Under the pieces are notes generated by a model. The model was given only the letters and a program-made list of their open reading frames with translations. It was not told where the DNA came from and did not search any database. From NCBI GenBank assembly GCA_934613415.1, contig CAKTSY010000001.1:330001-362000 (forward strand): a stretch of DNA of 32,000 nucleotides, read 5' to 3'. Each line of letters begins with the position of its first letter. Positions within the stretch are counted from its first letter, which is position 1. This stretch comes from an uncultured Opitutales bacterium (GTDB lineage: Bacteria > Verrucomicrobiota > Verrucomicrobiia > Opitutales > Intestinicryptomonadaceae). Positions 6,605-11,905 of this stretch are shown piece after piece. The position numbers and the translations under genes were made by a program.

Positions 6605-6632
6605 AATCATCTAAAAAAACCTGTAAAAAAAC

Positions 6633-6667
6633 AAAAACCTTTCGGAATACGAAAGGTTTTTTTGTTT
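6633..6667. terminator. Bidirectional intrinsic terminator shared by hpf (+) and the AT-rich cassette operon (-)
   Basis: 12-bp stem AAAAACCTTTCG (6633-6644) / CGAAAGGTTTTT (6650-6661) with a 5-nt loop. T-runs follow on both strands. Confidence 0.8.
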
Positions 6668-6735
6668 GATGGGAGGGGGACATAATTCTATGGAAAATAT
6701 ATAAACACACATCCTCGCATGCCAAATGTATCGTA

Positions 6736-8493
6736 TTAGATATCTATTCTAATAGTCTCTTCATCTCTATTTTGAAGCAAGATGAATTTATTTTCATCAG
6801 AACAATCTACTGTACCCCTATAGAAACGACTTGCATCCTTTATAATTGGATATTCCTTCTTATATTTAGAGTATCCGTCATTGCTGATAACTGCAGAATT
6901 TTCTTTCGTACTCGCCTTTTCCAAAACTAATATATCGGCCCGAAATGGAGCCTGAGAATAATGCCTTTTATCTTTTATCATTTCTTCATATAAATTTTTA
7001 TCATCTTCAGATTTTAATATGTGAGGACTTTGGATATCAAAAAAAACTTTATAGTCTAAGTCATGTTCTTGCAGGTAATCTACTATCTTTTGTATATAGA
7101 ATAGAGTCGGAATTTTATCCCCATTCCAATACATCATATTTGTACCATCCAAAATAAATAAACTTCTTTTCTTTATGTTTCTTTGCGCCGATAAGGATTT
7201 AGTTGCATTCTTAACCTTAGCAGGTTGACTGTCATCCACTGAATGCCGCCCAAAGTTGTTTGTATCAACTATTGGAAAAATATCCGCATCGTCTGATATA
7301 GGCCGCCAACGACTCTGCTTATCAATTGGCGCTATACGAGGCTTAGGAGGCATTGGAGGGATTGAAATTGGAGAGGAATTTTGCTTCGAAGAAGATTTAT
7401 CTACAGATTTAAGCTCAACCGCTTGATTATCATTCCCAGTCGACGGACATAATTCATTTTCAGCAACAACAGGAACAACGTCAACATCGTCTGCTACGCT
7501 ATGCAAATTTCTCTGCCCATCAATTGGTGATATACGACGTTTAGATGGGAAAACATACTTGGGAGTTGGTACTGTAACAGAAATATTCTTCTTATCATTA
7601 TCCTTTTCGTTAATTTTTGGTTCAGATAATGGTTTATGAATTATTTCATCCAAAAAACCAGGAACTTCGCGTTCTTCGATATTTTTTTGCCGATATAAAG
7701 GCTTAATAGTAGATTTAGAAGGAATAGGCAAAACACCATCTGCAGACTCATATTCTAACTCGATGCCAACGTCATTTTCATGCTTATTTGTATAATAATC
7801 TTTGATAATTTCCTGTGCCGACGAAAGATTCGCCACGCTAAATGAGTCCTGCAAAATGTTTTTTACAGATTCACGTTTTACCCTAGAAACAAAAGTATTA
7901 GGGGCTTCATTGTAATCTTCTATAATCTTTTCACAAACGCTTGCTGAAACAAAATTCCATTTCTTATCCGTAAAATAATTTTTATGTATATAATTAAAAA
8001 AACTATTCGTATTTACATGGTTTTCTGGAAGTTTCAAAAGTTTTGTTTGTATATCTCGAATATAAATATAGGATACAAACTCATCTGAGTATTTATAACA
8101 TATTCTATATTTTTTAGCCCATTCGTCGTATTTTCCGAAAATAAAGCGTGATTTTTCGCTATCAAATCTTCCGTTTTCTTTTTCTTCCATTTCTGCAATA
8201 TCTGGATTATCTTTGAGAAATGCACAATAATATACTCTCGGAGAAATGGCGCATCCTTTCATTATATCTATTGTAGTAAAAAAATCCCTGCAATACCTTG
8301 AGCCATACACCGTTTTATAAGCGTATATTAATCTATGACACATAAATGAATCTGGCGCATTAGAAAACAAGGATAATTCTTTAAAGTTAAAGAAGGGAAG
8401 ACCACTCCTTCCAGTTAATATTTCTACCATTCTCTCATAGTCCCCCCCTGGGACGAGATCTATTACTCTATTTACATAAACATTGTATATCAT
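6736..8493 (-). CDS. 585-aa protein: unknown N-terminal domain, repeat-containing linker, C-terminal Zc3h12a/NYN-like (PIN-fold) ribonuclease domain
   Basis: C-terminal ~130 aa (nt 6769-7164) carry SLFILDGTNMMYW, YKVFFD, RADILVLEKA and AVISNDGYSKY, matching the DGSN / SND acidic signature of Zc3h12a-type NYN RNases. The ATG lies 9 nt after the upstream stop. Confidence 0.75.
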   Translation of the reverse strand: MIYNVYVNRVIDLVPGGDYERMVEILTGRSGLPFFNFKELSLFSNAPDSFMCHRLIYAYKTVYGSRYCRDFFTTIDIMKGCAISPRVYYCAFLKDNPDIAEMEEKENGRFDSEKSRFIFGKYDEWAKKYRICYKYSDEFVSYIYIRDIQTKLLKLPENHVNTNSFFNYIHKNYFTDKKWNFVSASVCEKIIEDYNEAPNTFVSRVKRESVKNILQDSFSVANLSSAQEIIKDYYTNKHENDVGIELEYESADGVLPIPSKSTIKPLYRQKNIEEREVPGFLDEIIHKPLSEPKINEKDNDKKNISVTVPTPKYVFPSKRRISPIDGQRNLHSVADDVDVVPVVAENELCPSTGNDNQAVELKSVDKSSSKQNSSPISIPPMPPKPRIAPIDKQSRWRPISDDADIFPIVDTNNFGRHSVDDSQPAKVKNATKSLSAQRNIKKRSLFILDGTNMMYWNGDKIPTLFYIQKIVDYLQEHDLDYKVFFDIQSPHILKSEDDKNLYEEMIKDKRHYSQAPFRADILVLEKASTKENSAVISNDGYSKYKKEYPIIKDASRFYRGTVDCSDENKFILLQNRDEETIRIDI

Positions 8494-8502
8494 AACAAAA
8501 AA

Positions 8503-9039
8503 TTATATAACTTTATTGTACTCACGATAAAAAGATGATACAAAATTATCATCTATAAAATCCGGCTTGGGAATCAGTAGCATTGGTTGCGATGTATCTT
8601 CTTTTTTCGCAGAATCACTATACGTTTTATATGAACCGTGCTCACATGTACCCCGACAGCTCCCTTCGCAATCCCCATAACAACCGTGTTCACAATCTCC
8701 TTTGCAACTTCCCTCACAAGAACTATAGCAACCATTCCGACAACTACCCCGACAACTCCCTTCGCAATCTCCTTTGCAAGTACCATTACAAGAGCTATAA
8801 CAACCATTAAGGCAATTACCTTTGCATGTTTGGTAGCAACTAGAATAGCATCCCATACTGCAACTGCCATGGCAACTACTGCTACAGTGCCCTCTACAAC
8901 TTCCAAAACATTCGCCGGAACAACTTCCATAGCAATATCTGTTCTCAAATGGTTTCACAATATAAGAGCGAGTTTCAAGATTCTCGTATTTCTCAATGTA
9001 AGAAATAAGCTTTAAATCATCTTCTGTTAAATCTATCAT
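8503..9039 (-). CDS. 178-aa cysteine-periodic protein (25 x CX3C), presumed substrate of the adjacent radical SAM/SPASM enzyme
   Basis: Longest ORF filling the whole gap between the rSAM and NYN genes. Its ATG (9039) lies 1 nt after the rSAM stop (9041-9043). Cys occurs at residues 36, 40, 44 ... 132 with no register break. Confidence 0.85.
   Translation of the reverse strand: MIDLTEDDLKLISYIEKYENLETRSYIVKPFENRYCYGSCSGECFGSCRGHCSSSCHGSCSMGCYSSCYQTCKGNCLNGCYSSCNGTCKGDCEGSCRGSCRNGCYSSCEGSCKGDCEHGCYGDCEGSCRGTCEHGSYKTYSDSAKKEDTSQPMLLIPKPDFIDDNFVSSFYREYNKVI
8644..8934 (-). repeat. Coding 12-nt (4-codon) periodic array: 25 Cys codons at exact i,i+4 spacing with a 16-residue super-repeat
   Basis: YGSC SGEC FGSC RGHC SSSC HGSC SMGC YSSC YQTC KGNC LNGC YSSC NGTC KGDC EGSC RGSC RNGC YSSC EGSC KGDC EHGC YGDC EGSC RGTC. 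DNA near-duplicate 8651-8676 vs 8747-8772 (24/26 identical, 96 nt apart). Confidence 0.95.
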
Positions 9040-9040
9040 A

Positions 9041-10150
9041 TTATTTTACTTGGTTAAAAATTTGCTTGTTTAATTTTTTTATATTTTTTACACCGCATAT
9101 TTCTTCTGCAGACAGCTGTTTTCCTTGCATAATTTTTCTCTTTACCAATTCAATATGTAAGTATGCAACTACTTCCATTTGTATTTTAAACAATCTACAA
9201 GAGCATTTGTCTCGTTTGGAAATGTCTCCTCTATCTTTAAAATTAAATCCGTAGCATGTCGGGCATATATCAACGTACGAACATGATAGACATTCTTCGG
9301 AAGTAAAACTCGCGTTTTTTAATTCCCTTTTAACTGATTCAGGCATTTTGCGCCCCAATACAACCGAAGTGAACATATGACATGGATACGATGCCCCATC
9401 TACATCGTAGGCAATCATGTTCTTTCCACTACCACAATACTTCCTGTGCTCATGCATACAATCAACGTAAATCAATTTATTATCAAATAAATTGCATATG
9501 CTTATATCGGGATTTTGTATATAAAAATTCGATATTTTAAGCAACTCGCTTCTGAAGCACAAATAATCCTCTTCACTCCAATATTGCCCAAAAGAACATG
9601 TTGCTATGAATTCATAGCCGTTTTTGTGCAAAGAAATTATGTCTTCCGACAAACTCTTTACCGAATATGGAGATATAGTTACCTTCAAAGGTTGAAATGG
9701 ATATAAATTGAAAAAATAATCTATATCAATGACATCGTTTTTTGTTCTATTAACTTCCTGTGAAAACTTGCCATCATAGCTAATACCAACGACAAATATA
9801 GATTTGTTCTCTTCTAAATATTCTTTTATTTCGTTGTTTATGAGAGTCGCGTTTGTGGTGGCAAAAAATATATACGGAACATTTGGATTTTTACCAACAA
9901 CGTAGCTTATAATCTTTTTTATTAAATCAAACGAGCAAAAAGGTTCTCCCCCCATAAAATCAAATTCAATTTCGTCAAAATCTTTAGAATTTTCTACAAA
10001 CTTGAATTCATCATCAATAATACGTTTTGCTGTATCAAAATCCATTTCGCGATTGGATTTGAATTTTTCATAACAATAGCAACAGTTAAGATTACACTTG
10101 TGAGTTATAACCAGTGTGCAAATGCGTCTTCTTGTGTTTCCTTTTTCCAT
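9041..10150 (-). CDS. Radical SAM enzyme with C-terminal SPASM (auxiliary 4Fe-4S) domain, anSME/QhpD-like architecture
   Basis: C19-x3-C23-x2-C26 (CNLNCCYC) and GGEP SAM motif. SPASM-type C239-x12-G-x4-C257, C287-x2-C-x5-C-x2-C299 and C316/C318. Confidence 0.92.
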   Translation of the reverse strand: MEKGNTRRRICTLVITHKCNLNCCYCYEKFKSNREMDFDTAKRIIDDEFKFVENSKDFDEIEFDFMGGEPFCSFDLIKKIISYVVGKNPNVPYIFFATTNATLINNEIKEYLEENKSIFVVGISYDGKFSQEVNRTKNDVIDIDYFFNLYPFQPLKVTISPYSVKSLSEDIISLHKNGYEFIATCSFGQYWSEEDYLCFRSELLKISNFYIQNPDISICNLFDNKLIYVDCMHEHRKYCGSGKNMIAYDVDGASYPCHMFTSVVLGRKMPESVKRELKNASFTSEECLSCSYVDICPTCYGFNFKDRGDISKRDKCSCRLFKIQMEVVAYLHIELVKRKIMQGKQLSAEEICGVKNIKKLNKQIFNQVK

Positions 10151-10424
10151 ATATGAGAACTATTCCTAAAAAATAAGCTACCTATAAAAGGCTAGCATTT
10201 GTTTATACAGATATAAACACCCATGAAATATAGAGGGAATCTATACCCCCCAGTATTTCATGATCTCAAAATTAAAACGCACTTATGAAAATATTCGGGT
10301 AAGGATTATCGTACAATAAGTACGCTCCAAAACCTAAATGCTTTCATCGGCAACACATATTACCGCTTTGTTTCATTAAAAAACAATAAAACGATAATAA
10401 CTCAAATTCGATACAGAACTCTAA

Positions 10425-10688
10425 CTAAAACTTTAACGTTTGAAAATCACTATAGCCATTATTTAGCCACTCACCTTCATAACATATTCTTAAAGAAGAC
10501 TTATGGTTAAAGTTGTATATCGCAGTACCTACAATGTTTTTTATACACTCCTCTTGTTTGTCTTTCCCTTCAGAGAATGTAGCATTTCTCCTTATTGCGC
10601 CACTCAAAAATCCCTGAAATTCTTTAATTCCTTCTTCTCTTTTTTCCTTTTTTGTTAATTCTTTCATTCGTAATTTGTATTTTTCCAT
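10425..10688 (-). CDS. Hypothetical 87-aa protein (no recognisable domain), first ORF downstream of the palindrome-bracketed segment
   Basis: AT-rich ORF on the same strand as the cassette with a lysine/glutamate-rich N-terminus. No motif recognised. Confidence 0.45.
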   Translation of the reverse strand: MEKYKLRMKELTKKEKREEGIKEFQGFLSGAIRRNATFSEGKDKQEECIKNIVGTAIYNFNHKSSLRICYEGEWLNNGYSDFQTLKF

Positions 10689-10722
10689 TTATAAGAACGG
10701 CTTATAAACTATGTCTGCGAGT

Positions 10723-10741
10723 ATGGTATTTAGAATACCAT
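10723..10741. repeat. 19-bp palindromic site, copy 1 (ATGGTATTTAGAATACCAT)
   Basis: 8-3-8 palindrome. Exact reverse complement of the copy at 10890-10908. Confidence 0.9.
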
Positions 10742-10838
10742 ATGCTGCAAAATTTATGCAATACCCTGATAATCAGACAAAAATATTTATTGGGATATTG
10801 ATTCTTTAAAAGACTATCCTTGAAATAGAAATCCTTGA

Positions 10839-10891
10839 ATTGTCAACAAACCAAACGGTACAAAAGTTTTTTGGATTTTGTTGTTGACAAT
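10839..10891. repeat. Nested 11-bp inverted repeat ATTGTCAACAA / TTGTTGACAAT with 31-nt spacer
   Basis: Arms at 10839-10849 and 10881-10891. The right arm abuts/overlaps 19-bp site copy 2. Contains a TTGACA hexamer (10884-10889). Confidence 0.8.
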
Positions 10892-10908
10892 GGTATTCTA
10901 AATACCAT
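10890..10908. repeat. 19-bp palindromic site, copy 2 (ATGGTATTCTAAATACCAT), inverted relative to copy 1
   Basis: Exact reverse complement of 10723-10741. Includes the recombinase ATG at 10907. Confidence 0.9.
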
Positions 10909-11905
10909 GAACAATGAATTGATATCGGCGAGAGCTCTTTTAAGGGGCAAAAACATTAGCGTGTTAGATGCAGCTAGGCTTATTTGCAATATTGCAGATT
11001 TTATGCCAAAAAAATCTAAACTTACTACCCTTCAGTTTTGCGCCAAAGTAATTGAAATTGGCAAAAATAACTTTAGGCAAAACAAAATGCCTATCGCCAA
11101 AGGCTTTGATATTTATTTGCAGACTAAGCAAGATTTGCGCAAAGCTTCGTTTAGCGACATTAAATATTTGGGCAATAAGTTGTTAAAACTTAAGCCAGAA
11201 TTTGCAAAACGCAATTTCTCGGAGTTTAGTGTATCGGAATGCGAAGAGTGGCTAAGCTGCACGTTTAGCACCCCAAGCCAATACAACAAAGGGCGCGCTA
11301 TGTTGCATGCCTTTTTTGAATTTGCTCTTCGCTACGAGTGGTGTGATAAAAATCCCATTAAACAAATTTTAAGAAAAAAGGTAATAGAAAAAGAAATTTT
11401 GCCGCTAAAGCTACGCGAAATTAAAAGAATTATAGCCAATGCTAAAAAGGAGAATAACGGCATATATTTGCCTGCCGTAGCCCTATTGGTCTTTGCGGGA
11501 ATACGCCCGCGCGAAGTTAGGCGTTTAACTTGGCAAGATATTGATTTGCAGGAAAACACAATAACGGTACGCTCGCTGTGTTCTAAAACAGGCGGGGTGC
11601 GCCAAGTAGAAATTATGCCGCAACTAAAGCGAATTTTGCTAAGCTATAACCCGCAACTCCAGCAAAAAATATGCCCTGTAAACTGGCAGCGGCGTTGGCA
11701 AAAAATACGCAACAATTCGGGCTTTAGCGGTTGCTGGGTTCAGGACGTTTTGCGCCATACTTTTGCCAGCTTTTTTGCCAAACGTTTTAAAGATTTGCCG
11801 CGGTTGCAGCTAAATATGGGCCATAGCAACCAAATGCTCCTGCGAAGCCGCTACATAAACATGCGCAACATCTCCCGCCTAGAAGCCGAAATGTTTTTCA
11901 ACTAA
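10907..11905 (+). CDS. Tyrosine recombinase / phage-integrase family protein
   Basis: AGIRPREVRRLTWQDIDL (Arg box), VLRHTFASFF (box II), MGHSN and a terminal RSRYINM tyrosine. ATG 10907 is chosen; the track's TTG at 10835 would add 24 aa and cannot be excluded. Confidence 0.85.
   Translation: MNNELISARALLRGKNISVLDAARLICNIADFMPKKSKLTTLQFCAKVIEIGKNNFRQNKMPIAKGFDIYLQTKQDLRKASFSDIKYLGNKLLKLKPEFAKRNFSEFSVSECEEWLSCTFSTPSQYNKGRAMLHAFFEFALRYEWCDKNPIKQILRKKVIEKEILPLKLREIKRIIANAKKENNGIYLPAVALLVFAGIRPREVRRLTWQDIDLQENTITVRSLCSKTGGVRQVEIMPQLKRILLSYNPQLQQKICPVNWQRRWQKIRNNSGFSGCWVQDVLRHTFASFFAKRFKDLPRLQLNMGHSNQMLLRSRYINMRNISRLEAEMFFN

Follow-up and report, generated by a model that had tools for sequence, protein, structure and literature searches.

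Probably two modules rather than one three-gene system: a predicted radical SAM maturase with a 25-fold CX3C substrate beside a Zc3h12a-like NYN protein in a variable cargo slot of an uncultured Opitutales bacterium

Introduction

When three genes are packed almost without spacers, do they form one functional system, or do they share little more than a transcription unit? We asked this of a locus in a 32,000-nucleotide (nt) stretch of DNA from an uncultured Opitutales bacterium (GenBank assembly GCA_934613415.1, contig CAKTSY010000001.1, positions 330,001 to 362,000 of the forward strand), which at its full length we call the window. The locus holds a gene for a predicted radical S-adenosylmethionine (rSAM) enzyme of the SPASM type, a gene for a protein with cysteine at every fourth position (the CX3C protein), and a gene, here called gene 3, for a protein of 585 amino acids (aa) with a predicted NYN nuclease domain:

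9041-10150, minus strand: predicted rSAM/SPASM peptide maturase, 369 aa
8503-9039, minus strand: CX3C-repeat protein, putative precursor or substrate, 178 aa
6736-8493, minus strand: gene 3, 585-aa NYN protein with three domains or regions

A first-pass annotation, made from the sequence alone, had proposed that these genes constitute an undescribed three-gene system, and had held that the proposal should be given up if the three families did not co-occur in other genomes. Its coordinates, strand assignment and description of tight packing agree with the positions of the open reading frames (ORFs) and with the junctions read from the sequence: the rSAM gene is separated from the CX3C gene by 1 nt (TAA-T-ATG), and the CX3C gene from gene 3 by 9 nt (TAA-ttttttgtt-ATG). 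Our analysis points to a different reading of the trio. We think it probable that the locus holds two separable modules in one transcription unit, and not one new three-gene system. Module A would be a two-gene cassette of the kind that makes peptides that are synthesized ribosomally and modified post-translationally (RiPPs), and module B the NYN protein; the two are co-oriented and probably co-transcribed in this slot.

Results

The three families do not co-occur in related loci

We surveyed gene neighborhoods from both sides of the trio. The rSAM-side census covered 8 kb around an rSAM homologue at 80 bacterial and 80 viral loci, and the NYN-side census covered 13 loci around NYN relatives, to which a tighter alignment subset contributed 10 metagenome loci. 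No NYN or gene-3-like ORF lay within 8 kb of the rSAM gene in the bacterial (0/80) or the viral (0/80) set. The reverse search, for rSAM relatives and CX3C ORFs around the NYN relatives, was the check that the first-pass annotation had itself put forward, and it was negative as well (0/13 loci). With the families never found together at 160 rSAM and 13 NYN loci, the proposed three-gene system is not borne out. Distant NYN relatives sit in integrative elements with integrase, PadR, primase and AAA_25 genes. The open-access literature contained no description of an rSAM, CX3C and NYN trio, and PADLOC-DB v2 had no match for gene 3, the CX3C protein or orf87, a small ORF at the head of the same cargo.

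Gene 3 also occurs in a form that is not accompanied by the pair. In three gut metagenomes (contigs L001-L003), a 421-aa allele of gene 3 lies beside the same HPF gene that neighbors gene 3 in the window, and the slot contains neither an rSAM nor a CX3C gene. The DNA of these contigs is 96-97% identical to the window at 10398-10211 and again from 7236 downward. Between these two stretches, where the window has 2975 nt, the contigs have 1208 nt encoding a 55-aa membrane ORF and a divergent gene-3 N-terminus:

7236-10211: segment replaced in L001-L003, spanning the rSAM gene, the CX3C gene and gene 3 up to about codon 419

At the protein level the two gene-3 alleles are 31% identical in their N-terminal parts and about 99% identical over the C-terminal 160 aa.

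The strongest competing explanation is that the three genes, perhaps together with orf87, form a lineage-specific conflict or defence unit in which the cross-linked CX3C protein would serve the NYN RNase as partner, inhibitor or sensor scaffold. The RNase would be contacted through the orphan N-terminal domain of gene 3, with gating that resembles toxin-antitoxin or abortive-infection systems. We regard this as unlikely. The absence of co-occurrence in 173 loci searched from both sides is the best argument against it, and to this can be added the gene-3 allele that exists without the pair, the frequency of the rSAM/CX3C pair elsewhere as a self-contained two-gene cassette, and the lack of a PADLOC model for gene 3, the CX3C protein or the NYN relatives. 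On the other side, the best argument is the joint swapping of the gene-3 N-terminal domain with the rSAM and CX3C genes; the tight packing, the LeoA/LeoBC-like dynamins carried by the slot in another strain, the rSAM/CX3C pairs found elsewhere among toxin-antitoxin genes and the distant NYN relatives in integrative elements also speak for a functional trio.

Several points weigh against the two-module reading itself. Spacers of 1 nt and 9 nt imply co-expression, possibly even translational coupling, of all three genes, as far as the sequence can indicate. The block replaced in L001-L003 couples the gene-3 N-terminal domain with the rSAM and CX3C genes, and such joint replacement is expected if that domain is matched to the CX3C product. 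Just two alleles of gene 3 are found anywhere, so the argument from an allele without the pair is an argument from a single alternative allele (n=1), and the L001-L003 contigs end 188 nt upstream, which leaves room for an rSAM gene elsewhere in those genomes. The NYN-side test covers 13 loci only, and strain copies of the cassette, at 99.8-100% identity, are too alike for a test of nonsynonymous against synonymous substitution (dN/dS). Finally, we know of no experimental chemistry for any CX3C-repeat substrate, and the open-access literature yielded none for CX3C repeats.

The first-pass annotation had suggested that a cysteine scaffold gates the RNase, or that expression of the CX3C protein is tied to an RNase regulator. 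Either may hold in this lineage; the comparative data lend support to neither. A specific form of the idea, in which the orphan N-terminal domain recognizes the cross-linked scaffold and the state of that scaffold (made, degraded or hijacked in infection) switches the RNase on or off, strikes us as distinctly improbable; if it were true, the joint replacement of the rSAM gene, the CX3C gene and the gene-3 N-terminal domain would be a replacement of co-adapted partners. We return below to the two-module reading and take its components in turn.

The enzyme of the proposed module A belongs to a clade of predicted thioether maturases

The rSAM/SPASM assignment stands on several grounds. Among 40 aligned homologues, the CX3CX2C motif at C19/C23/C26 and a GGEP motif at residues 67-70 are invariant or nearly so, and seven C-terminal cysteines (C239, C257, C287, C290, C296, C299 and C318) are invariant. 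Pfam returned Fer4_12 (40.4 bits, cutoff 22) and Radical_SAM PF04055 (30.0 bits, cutoff 29.5), and a fragment of residues 225-335 scores above the cutoff of the SPASM model TIGR04085 (30.8 bits against 27); the Pfam SPASM family PF13186 did not match the protein.

The top NCBIfam match is PapB (NF047865), which aligned over residues 12-311 of the enzyme at 123.9 bits, below its equivalog cutoff of 340. The CXXX-repeat maturase model TIGR04115 scored 109.8 bits, again below its equivalog cutoff (350), and the matches to CcpM (93 bits), SCIFF (85 bits) and QhpD (70 bits) fall far short of theirs. All of these top-scoring relatives, namely PapB, the CXXX-repeat family, SCIFF, CcpM and QhpD, are maturases that form thioethers in Cys-containing peptides. 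Since the alignments to PapB and TIGR04115 begin at the first residues of those models, the enzyme has no N-terminal extension of the RiPP recognition element (RRE) type. Its same-clade relatives, too, score only 116.8-157.4 bits against TIGR04115 and PapB, so the clade is a large sister group of these two families that has no dedicated model. At least 299 homologues were found at E<1e-10, in hosts that include Bacteroidales, Treponema, Lentisphaerae, Kiritimatiellales, Clostridia and other groups. In the PHROG collection of phage proteins, the window's rSAM and CX3C proteins matched phrog_1802 and phrog_6085, the CX3C protein matching phrog_6085 at E=1.7e-7.

Two further matches were set aside. 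Viperin or pVip identity was rejected, as the matches to pVip (46.5 bits in PADLOC) and to the NCBIfam viperin model (46.8 bits against 180) fall far short of the cutoffs and cover the generic rSAM core only. TIGR04119 matches inside the C-terminus of the enzyme at 14.3 bits, against a cutoff of 150.

The CX3C protein carries 25 exactly spaced cysteines

The cysteine periodicity noted in the first-pass annotation is exact: 25 Cys occupy residues 36, 40 and so on to 132, each interval being 4, and the longest i,i+4 run of Cys in 10,000 shuffles of the 178-aa protein was 6. Within the repeat, X2 is mainly Gly (15/25) and X3 mainly Ser (11/25). The protein can be divided into three parts, all on the minus strand:

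8935-9039, minus strand: leader-like segment, residues 1-35
8635-8934, minus strand: 25-Cys core, residues 36-135
8506-8634, minus strand: Cys-free tail of 43 aa

The leader-like segment aligns loosely with the leaders of related precursors. The protein passes TIGR04114, the "Cys-rich repeat" model (43.1 bits, cutoff 20), which by its NCBIfam definition is the repeat targeted by CXXX-repeat rSAM enzymes. Because gene 2 passes this model, its pairing with gene 1 is of a catalogued kind (TIGR04114/TIGR04115, the 'CXXX-repeat target family') and not an unnamed one.

At the DNA level, the core at 8628-8868 contains degenerate repeats with 48-nt and 72-nt spacing and 62-78% identity; these spacings are multiples of the 12-nt unit that encodes one CX3 repeat, a pattern that fits an expansion of the core through internal duplication.

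Both proteins of the pair fare poorly in public gene calls. The calls start the rSAM gene at M36, giving a 334-aa product that has lost the CX3CX2C motif, and replace the CX3C gene by a 118-aa ORF in another frame (L004-L009, L097 and L102). Because gene callers systematically truncate the enzyme and mis-frame the substrate, protein databases either lack such CX3C and rSAM proteins or annotate them wrongly.

The pair recurs in bacteria and phages

In the bacterial set, 19 of 34 related loci have, by a strict criterion, a small ORF with a CX3C-type core next to the rSAM gene on the same strand. The closest rSAM relatives of the window enzyme (44-49% identity) lie on bacterial-type contigs with short RiPP-like precursors; they are accompanied by one to three tandem precursors that share a conserved leader (NVNYDVELLNSVVSSGSVSYES) and have variable cores of 7-17 Cys. 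Core size reaches 39 Cys in a Treponema metagenome-assembled genome. Neighbors beyond the pair vary and include toxin-antitoxin genes, helix-turn-helix regulators, Lcl_C proteins and an ABC ATPase, and no protease or exporter recurs at the related rSAM/CX3C loci. This combination of a gene pair, conserved leaders and variable cores is a classic RiPP organization. One bacterial locus illustrates the arrangement: at L091 3543-4363, three tandem paralogous precursors with the near-identical leader NVNYDVELLNSVVSSGSVSYES and cores of 7, 9 and 16 Cys lie directly upstream of an rSAM gene whose product is 49% identical to the window's, and a gene for a YafQ-type toxin adjoins them.

Among viral loci (IMG/VR, L105-L184), ORFs with a CX3C run lie beside the rSAM relative in 50 of 80, often encode 100-290 aa and have up to 21 Cys per run. 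Phage contig L122 places an rSAM gene and two genes for phrog_6085 CX3C proteins between an endolysin gene and a tail-fibre gene. Given these occurrences, CX3C proteins cross-linked by rSAM enzymes may serve phages as structural or conflict-related proteins. Examples of the viral CX3C ORFs are found at L122 6829-7152 and 5949-6809, L109 9555-9947 and L121 6661-7515, and some viral CX3C-run proteins are fused to globular domains.

A group of large viral contigs (L128-L134, L138 and L140; IMGVR 3300045988_*) has few long ORFs under genetic code 11; L128, for instance, has 7 ORFs of at least 90 aa in 10.5 kb. In these contigs the CX3C ORF is split by one stop, located between '...GGCSSC' and 'GGCEGSC...', which suggests stop-codon reassignment in these phages.

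The phage loci bear on a second alternative, that the window's pair came from a phage or mobile element, where it would make a structural cross-linked repeat protein (for example of a virion or fibre), and is here a captured remnant unrelated to the RNase. The 50 viral loci, many with CX3C proteins in the same 100-290 aa range as the window's, the placement of the L122 genes beside a tail-fibre gene, the low GC content and the adjacent integrase all fit such an origin. Yet viral rSAM relatives are mostly just ~25% identical to the window's enzyme, its closest relatives are the bacterial-type loci with short precursors, the islet has no other phage genes, and about 22 contigs carry the two ORFs in intact, identical form. 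We consider a phage remnant quite unlikely. That the CX3C protein is instead a metal- or Fe-S-binding protein of metallothionein-like character, with the rSAM enzyme acting elsewhere, seems highly improbable: 25 Cys with Gly/Ser-rich spacers would chelate metals, and rSAM modification of the core is predicted only, but TIGR04114 is defined as an rSAM target repeat, and the recurrent adjacency of this clade to CX3C ORFs with conserved leaders and hypervariable cores is a RiPP signature.

The proposed module A compared with known maturation systems

On the two-module reading, module A would comprise an RRE-less rSAM/SPASM maturase and a 25-fold CX3C substrate with a leader-like helix. The CXXX-repeat rSAM system (TIGR04114, TIGR04115, the TIGR04117 Syntrophobacter paralogs and TIGR04119) likewise sets an RRE-less rSAM/SPASM enzyme beside a protein with Cys at every fourth position, and its target and maturase genes are adjacent, as they are across the 1-nt spacer of the window. 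The window differs in that its enzyme stays below the TIGR04115 cutoff (109.8 against 350 bits), its islet has no separate gene for a TIGR04119 second maturase, and its substrate is long (178 aa, 25 Cys and a 43-aa tail). The CXXX-repeat system was reportedly defined in silico by Haft and Basu in 2011. The rSAM and CX3C pairing is already known in silico; the sister-clade enzyme and the unusually long substrate are new.

SCIFF/CteB, QhpD/QhpC and CcpM also combine an rSAM/SPASM enzyme with a Cys-rich substrate, and NCBIfam annotates SCIFF, CcpM and QhpD as thioether-forming. Unlike the window enzyme, whose match to these models starts at about model position 86-99, the SCIFF, QhpD and CcpM enzymes have an N-terminal RRE extension, and their substrate patterns differ from the window's.

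PapB, paired with PapA (freyrasin), resembles the window enzyme as a small RRE-less rSAM/SPASM protein that acts on repeated C-X3-acceptor motifs. PapB forms Cys-to-Asp/Glu thioethers at CXXXD/E (PMC10739248). In contrast to the PapB substrate, the window core has no C-X3-Asp/Glu motif: Asp and Glu occur at X1 or X3 only. The acceptor must differ from the i+4 Asp/Glu of PapB, because the i+4 residue of the window core is always Cys.

By analogy with every characterized maturase among its top-scoring relatives, module A probably introduces multiple thioether cross-links into its core of 25 repeats. The rSAM cluster would cleave S-adenosylmethionine, the resulting 5'-deoxyadenosyl radical would abstract hydrogen from core residues, and the SPASM auxiliary clusters would hold Cys thiolates, so that repeated intramolecular cross-links of a ranthionine- or sactionine-like type would yield a rigid ladder of small rings. 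The product would probably be protein-sized and may stay intracellular or act like the phage-encoded, protein-sized CX3C proteins. That it is not a small secreted peptide is suggested by its protein-like size, its 43-aa tail and the lack of a protease or exporter.

Gene 3, the proposed module B, encodes a near-orphan NYN protein with a Zc3h12a-type domain

Gene 3 encodes three regions of different character:

7789-8493, minus strand: N-terminal, mostly helical orphan domain, residues 1-235
7186-7788, minus strand: linker predicted to be disordered, residues 236-436, with abundant Pro, Lys, Ser and Asp (predicted local distance difference test score, pLDDT, about 30)
6736-7185, minus strand: Zc3h12a-type NYN (PIN-like) RNase domain, residues 437-585 plus the stop codon

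The full-length protein had no match in Pfam, NCBIfam, PADLOC or PHROGs. When 5.8 billion proteins were searched with a word index, only gene 3 itself and one 421-aa relative came back. An exhaustive HMMER search of 1.84 billion representatives returned 98 matches, of which all but P0001 and P0002 cover residues ~412-574 only; residues 1-410 had no relative in that search beyond these two. The sole relative of the N-terminal domain is the 421-aa allele (P0002), at 31% identity.

The first-pass assignment of the C-terminal domain to the Zc3h12a/NYN group is confirmed by remote comparison, even though the domain is sub-threshold in a direct Pfam search (17.4 bits and E=0.0037 against PF11977 for the isolated domain, below the cutoff of 23). 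Of 49 remote homologues, 43 match PF11977 RNase_Zc3h12a. A profile of the trimmed domain matched structures in the PDB at E-values from 6e-7 to 5e-6, including KHNYN (5.8e-7), ZC3H12B (1.5e-6), ZC3H12A (2.8e-6) and ZC3H12C, with PRORP matched weakly; a phmmer search of the domain against the PDB gave no match. An AlphaFold2 model built on an 11-sequence alignment has pLDDT >90 over residues 445-560, and in the N-terminal domain only residues 90-220 reach 65-90; a single-sequence model of the NYN domain, at pLDDT 50, was too poor for use. Searched with Foldseek, the alignment-based model matched ZC3H12C (8e-5) and MCPIP1 (1.4e-4), with a target template modelling (TM) score of about 0.6, as well as ZC3H12B and KHNYN, and no Foldseek match was attributable to the N-terminal domain.

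Residues D449, N452, D486, D520 and D539 are invariant across 97 sequences, among them the two aspartates, D449 and D539, that the first-pass annotation had singled out. The catalytic acidic residues of MCPIP1 are D141, D225, D226, D244 and D248 (PMC5499597), and the gene-3 equivalents of D226 and D248 are I521 and K543. Full catalytic competence of the predicted RNase is likely, not certain. Gene 3 shares its fold and, those two positions apart, its core acidic residues with Zc3h12a/MCPIP1 (Regnase-1), KHNYN and N4BP1, but it has no zinc finger or KH domain and carries instead the orphan N-terminal domain and a long disordered linker. It is a new, near-orphan member of the bacterial PF11977 proteins, which are described as having 'Unknown function in bacteria' (PMC5499597). 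Module B would be a lineage-restricted, predicted Mg2+-dependent endoribonuclease whose N-terminal domain, which diverges rapidly between alleles, would set specificity or regulation.

Two observations concern domain architecture. The linker contains two copies (residues ~316-346 and ~383-413) of a motif of ~30 aa, K[RP]RI[SA]PID.Q...DD.D..P.V, which read ..KRRISPIDGQ..DDVDVVPVV.. and ..KPRIAPIDKQ..DDADIFPIV..; the 421-aa allele has a shortened linker with one degenerate copy only. Among the 49 bacterial Zc3h12a-like relatives (P0123-P0218), 14 have N-terminal VWA domains and two have cold-shock domains, and the NYN relatives had no PADLOC match apart from cold-shock domain models.

The three genes lie in a strain-variable cargo slot

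The trio and its neighbors occupy a slot between the HPF and GDPD genes, whose features are:

6633-6661: bidirectional terminator-like hairpin between HPF and gene 3, at the left edge of the variable cargo
6668-10719: strain-variable cargo slot and low-GC islet, holding orf87, the rSAM gene, the CX3C gene and gene 3
10425-10688, minus strand: orf87, 87 aa, at the head of the cargo and kept with the cassette in strain copies
10723-10741: perfect 19-nt palindrome ATGGTATTTAGAATACCAT (ATGGTATT-N3-AATACCAT), at the right edge of the variable cargo
10835-11905, plus strand: tyrosine recombinase, divergent from the cargo genes
10890-10908: second copy of the palindrome, at the 5' end of the recombinase gene

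In strains of the species (L097-L104 and L001-L003), lookup of the HPF protein showed that the interval from HPF to GDPD exists in at least five cargo haplotypes. The first is that of the window, with the trio, orf87 and the recombinase, and is found in about 22 contigs; the second carries the 421-aa NYN allele; the third has a 227-aa protein and the recombinase; the fourth (L099) lacks the recombinase and encodes an HSP70-like protein, a pair of dynamin-like proteins, a C39-like peptidase and a 206-aa protein; and the fifth has a pentapeptide-repeat protein. All contigs come from human gut metagenomes, Hadza samples included. The GpsA protein of the window belongs to a 90% cluster in which the named member comes from an 'Opitutales bacterium' metagenome-assembled genome. 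The 227-aa protein was compared with gene 3 as a possible truncated copy and proved unrelated. Against PADLOC models, the dynamin-like proteins of L099 score 76 bits for LeoBC and 58 bits for LeoA, and are Eleos-like.

Homology of the other haplotypes to the window stops sharply at 6607-6668, at the HPF terminator hairpin. In three haplotypes it resumes at 10719-10726, exactly at the 19-nt palindrome, and in the more diverged L098 and L100 it resumes at 10883. The palindrome occurs in two copies only in the window, flanking the start of the recombinase gene, and may be a recombinase or regulator site. A generic repeat search found no flanking direct or attC-like repeats beyond these two palindromes, and att-like direct repeats flanking the islet were limited to short, chance-level matches.

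Other features named in the first-pass annotation were confirmed. The islet has a GC content of 0.31-0.37, against 0.42-0.48 in its flanks, and the neighboring recombinase matches PF00589 (51.6 bits) and the phrog_1 integrase (E=6e-32); automated gene calls start it ~72 nt later (332 aa). The ORF list and family scans showed no protease, exporter or immunity gene in the islet, as had been noted, and the ORFs and a PHROG scan showed no further phage genes there. No tRNA gene is present, orf87 had no family match in Pfam, NCBIfam, PADLOC or PHROG scans, and a promoter scan returned 19 sites where 21 were expected.

A G-rich hairpin, GGGGGGTATAGATTCCCTC, with a T-rich tract after it, lies ~80 nt upstream of the rSAM start (10231-10252, minus strand). 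It falls just inside the 188-nt segment common to the alternative haplotype (breakpoint 10211), and could be a terminator or attenuator between orf87 and the rSAM operon.

With alternative cargoes between fixed flanks, a divergent tyrosine recombinase and a palindrome at the boundary, the slot resembles defence hotspots and, by loose analogy, integrons, from which it differs in that one haplotype has no recombinase. Identity as an integron was rejected, the integrase model TIGR02249 scoring 29.4 bits against a cutoff of 265. An accessory or conflict context is plausible because one haplotype carries Eleos-like dynamins. The accessory or conflict setting inferred in the first-pass annotation is to that extent reasonable, given the exchangeable cargo and the Leo-like dynamins, but the context shows only an exchange of cargo and does not make this cargo one system.

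Discussion

If the locus indeed holds two modules, each has its own significance. The NYN protein extends the set of Zc3h12a-like RNases known from bacteria, and the space between HPF and GDPD provides a clean, recombinase-adjacent cargo hotspot in an uncultured gut lineage of Verrucomicrobiota. The enzyme of module A points to a sister clade without a model of its own, whose members abound in gut bacteria and, as was not expected, also in phages (50 of 80 viral loci), and are under-represented in protein databases through gene-caller errors. A cross-linked protein of 25 rings, if made, would be an unusual biopolymer, and the two-gene set is tractable for heterologous expression. The pairing of rSAM and CX3C genes in phages is arguably a more interesting lead than the trio from which this analysis began.

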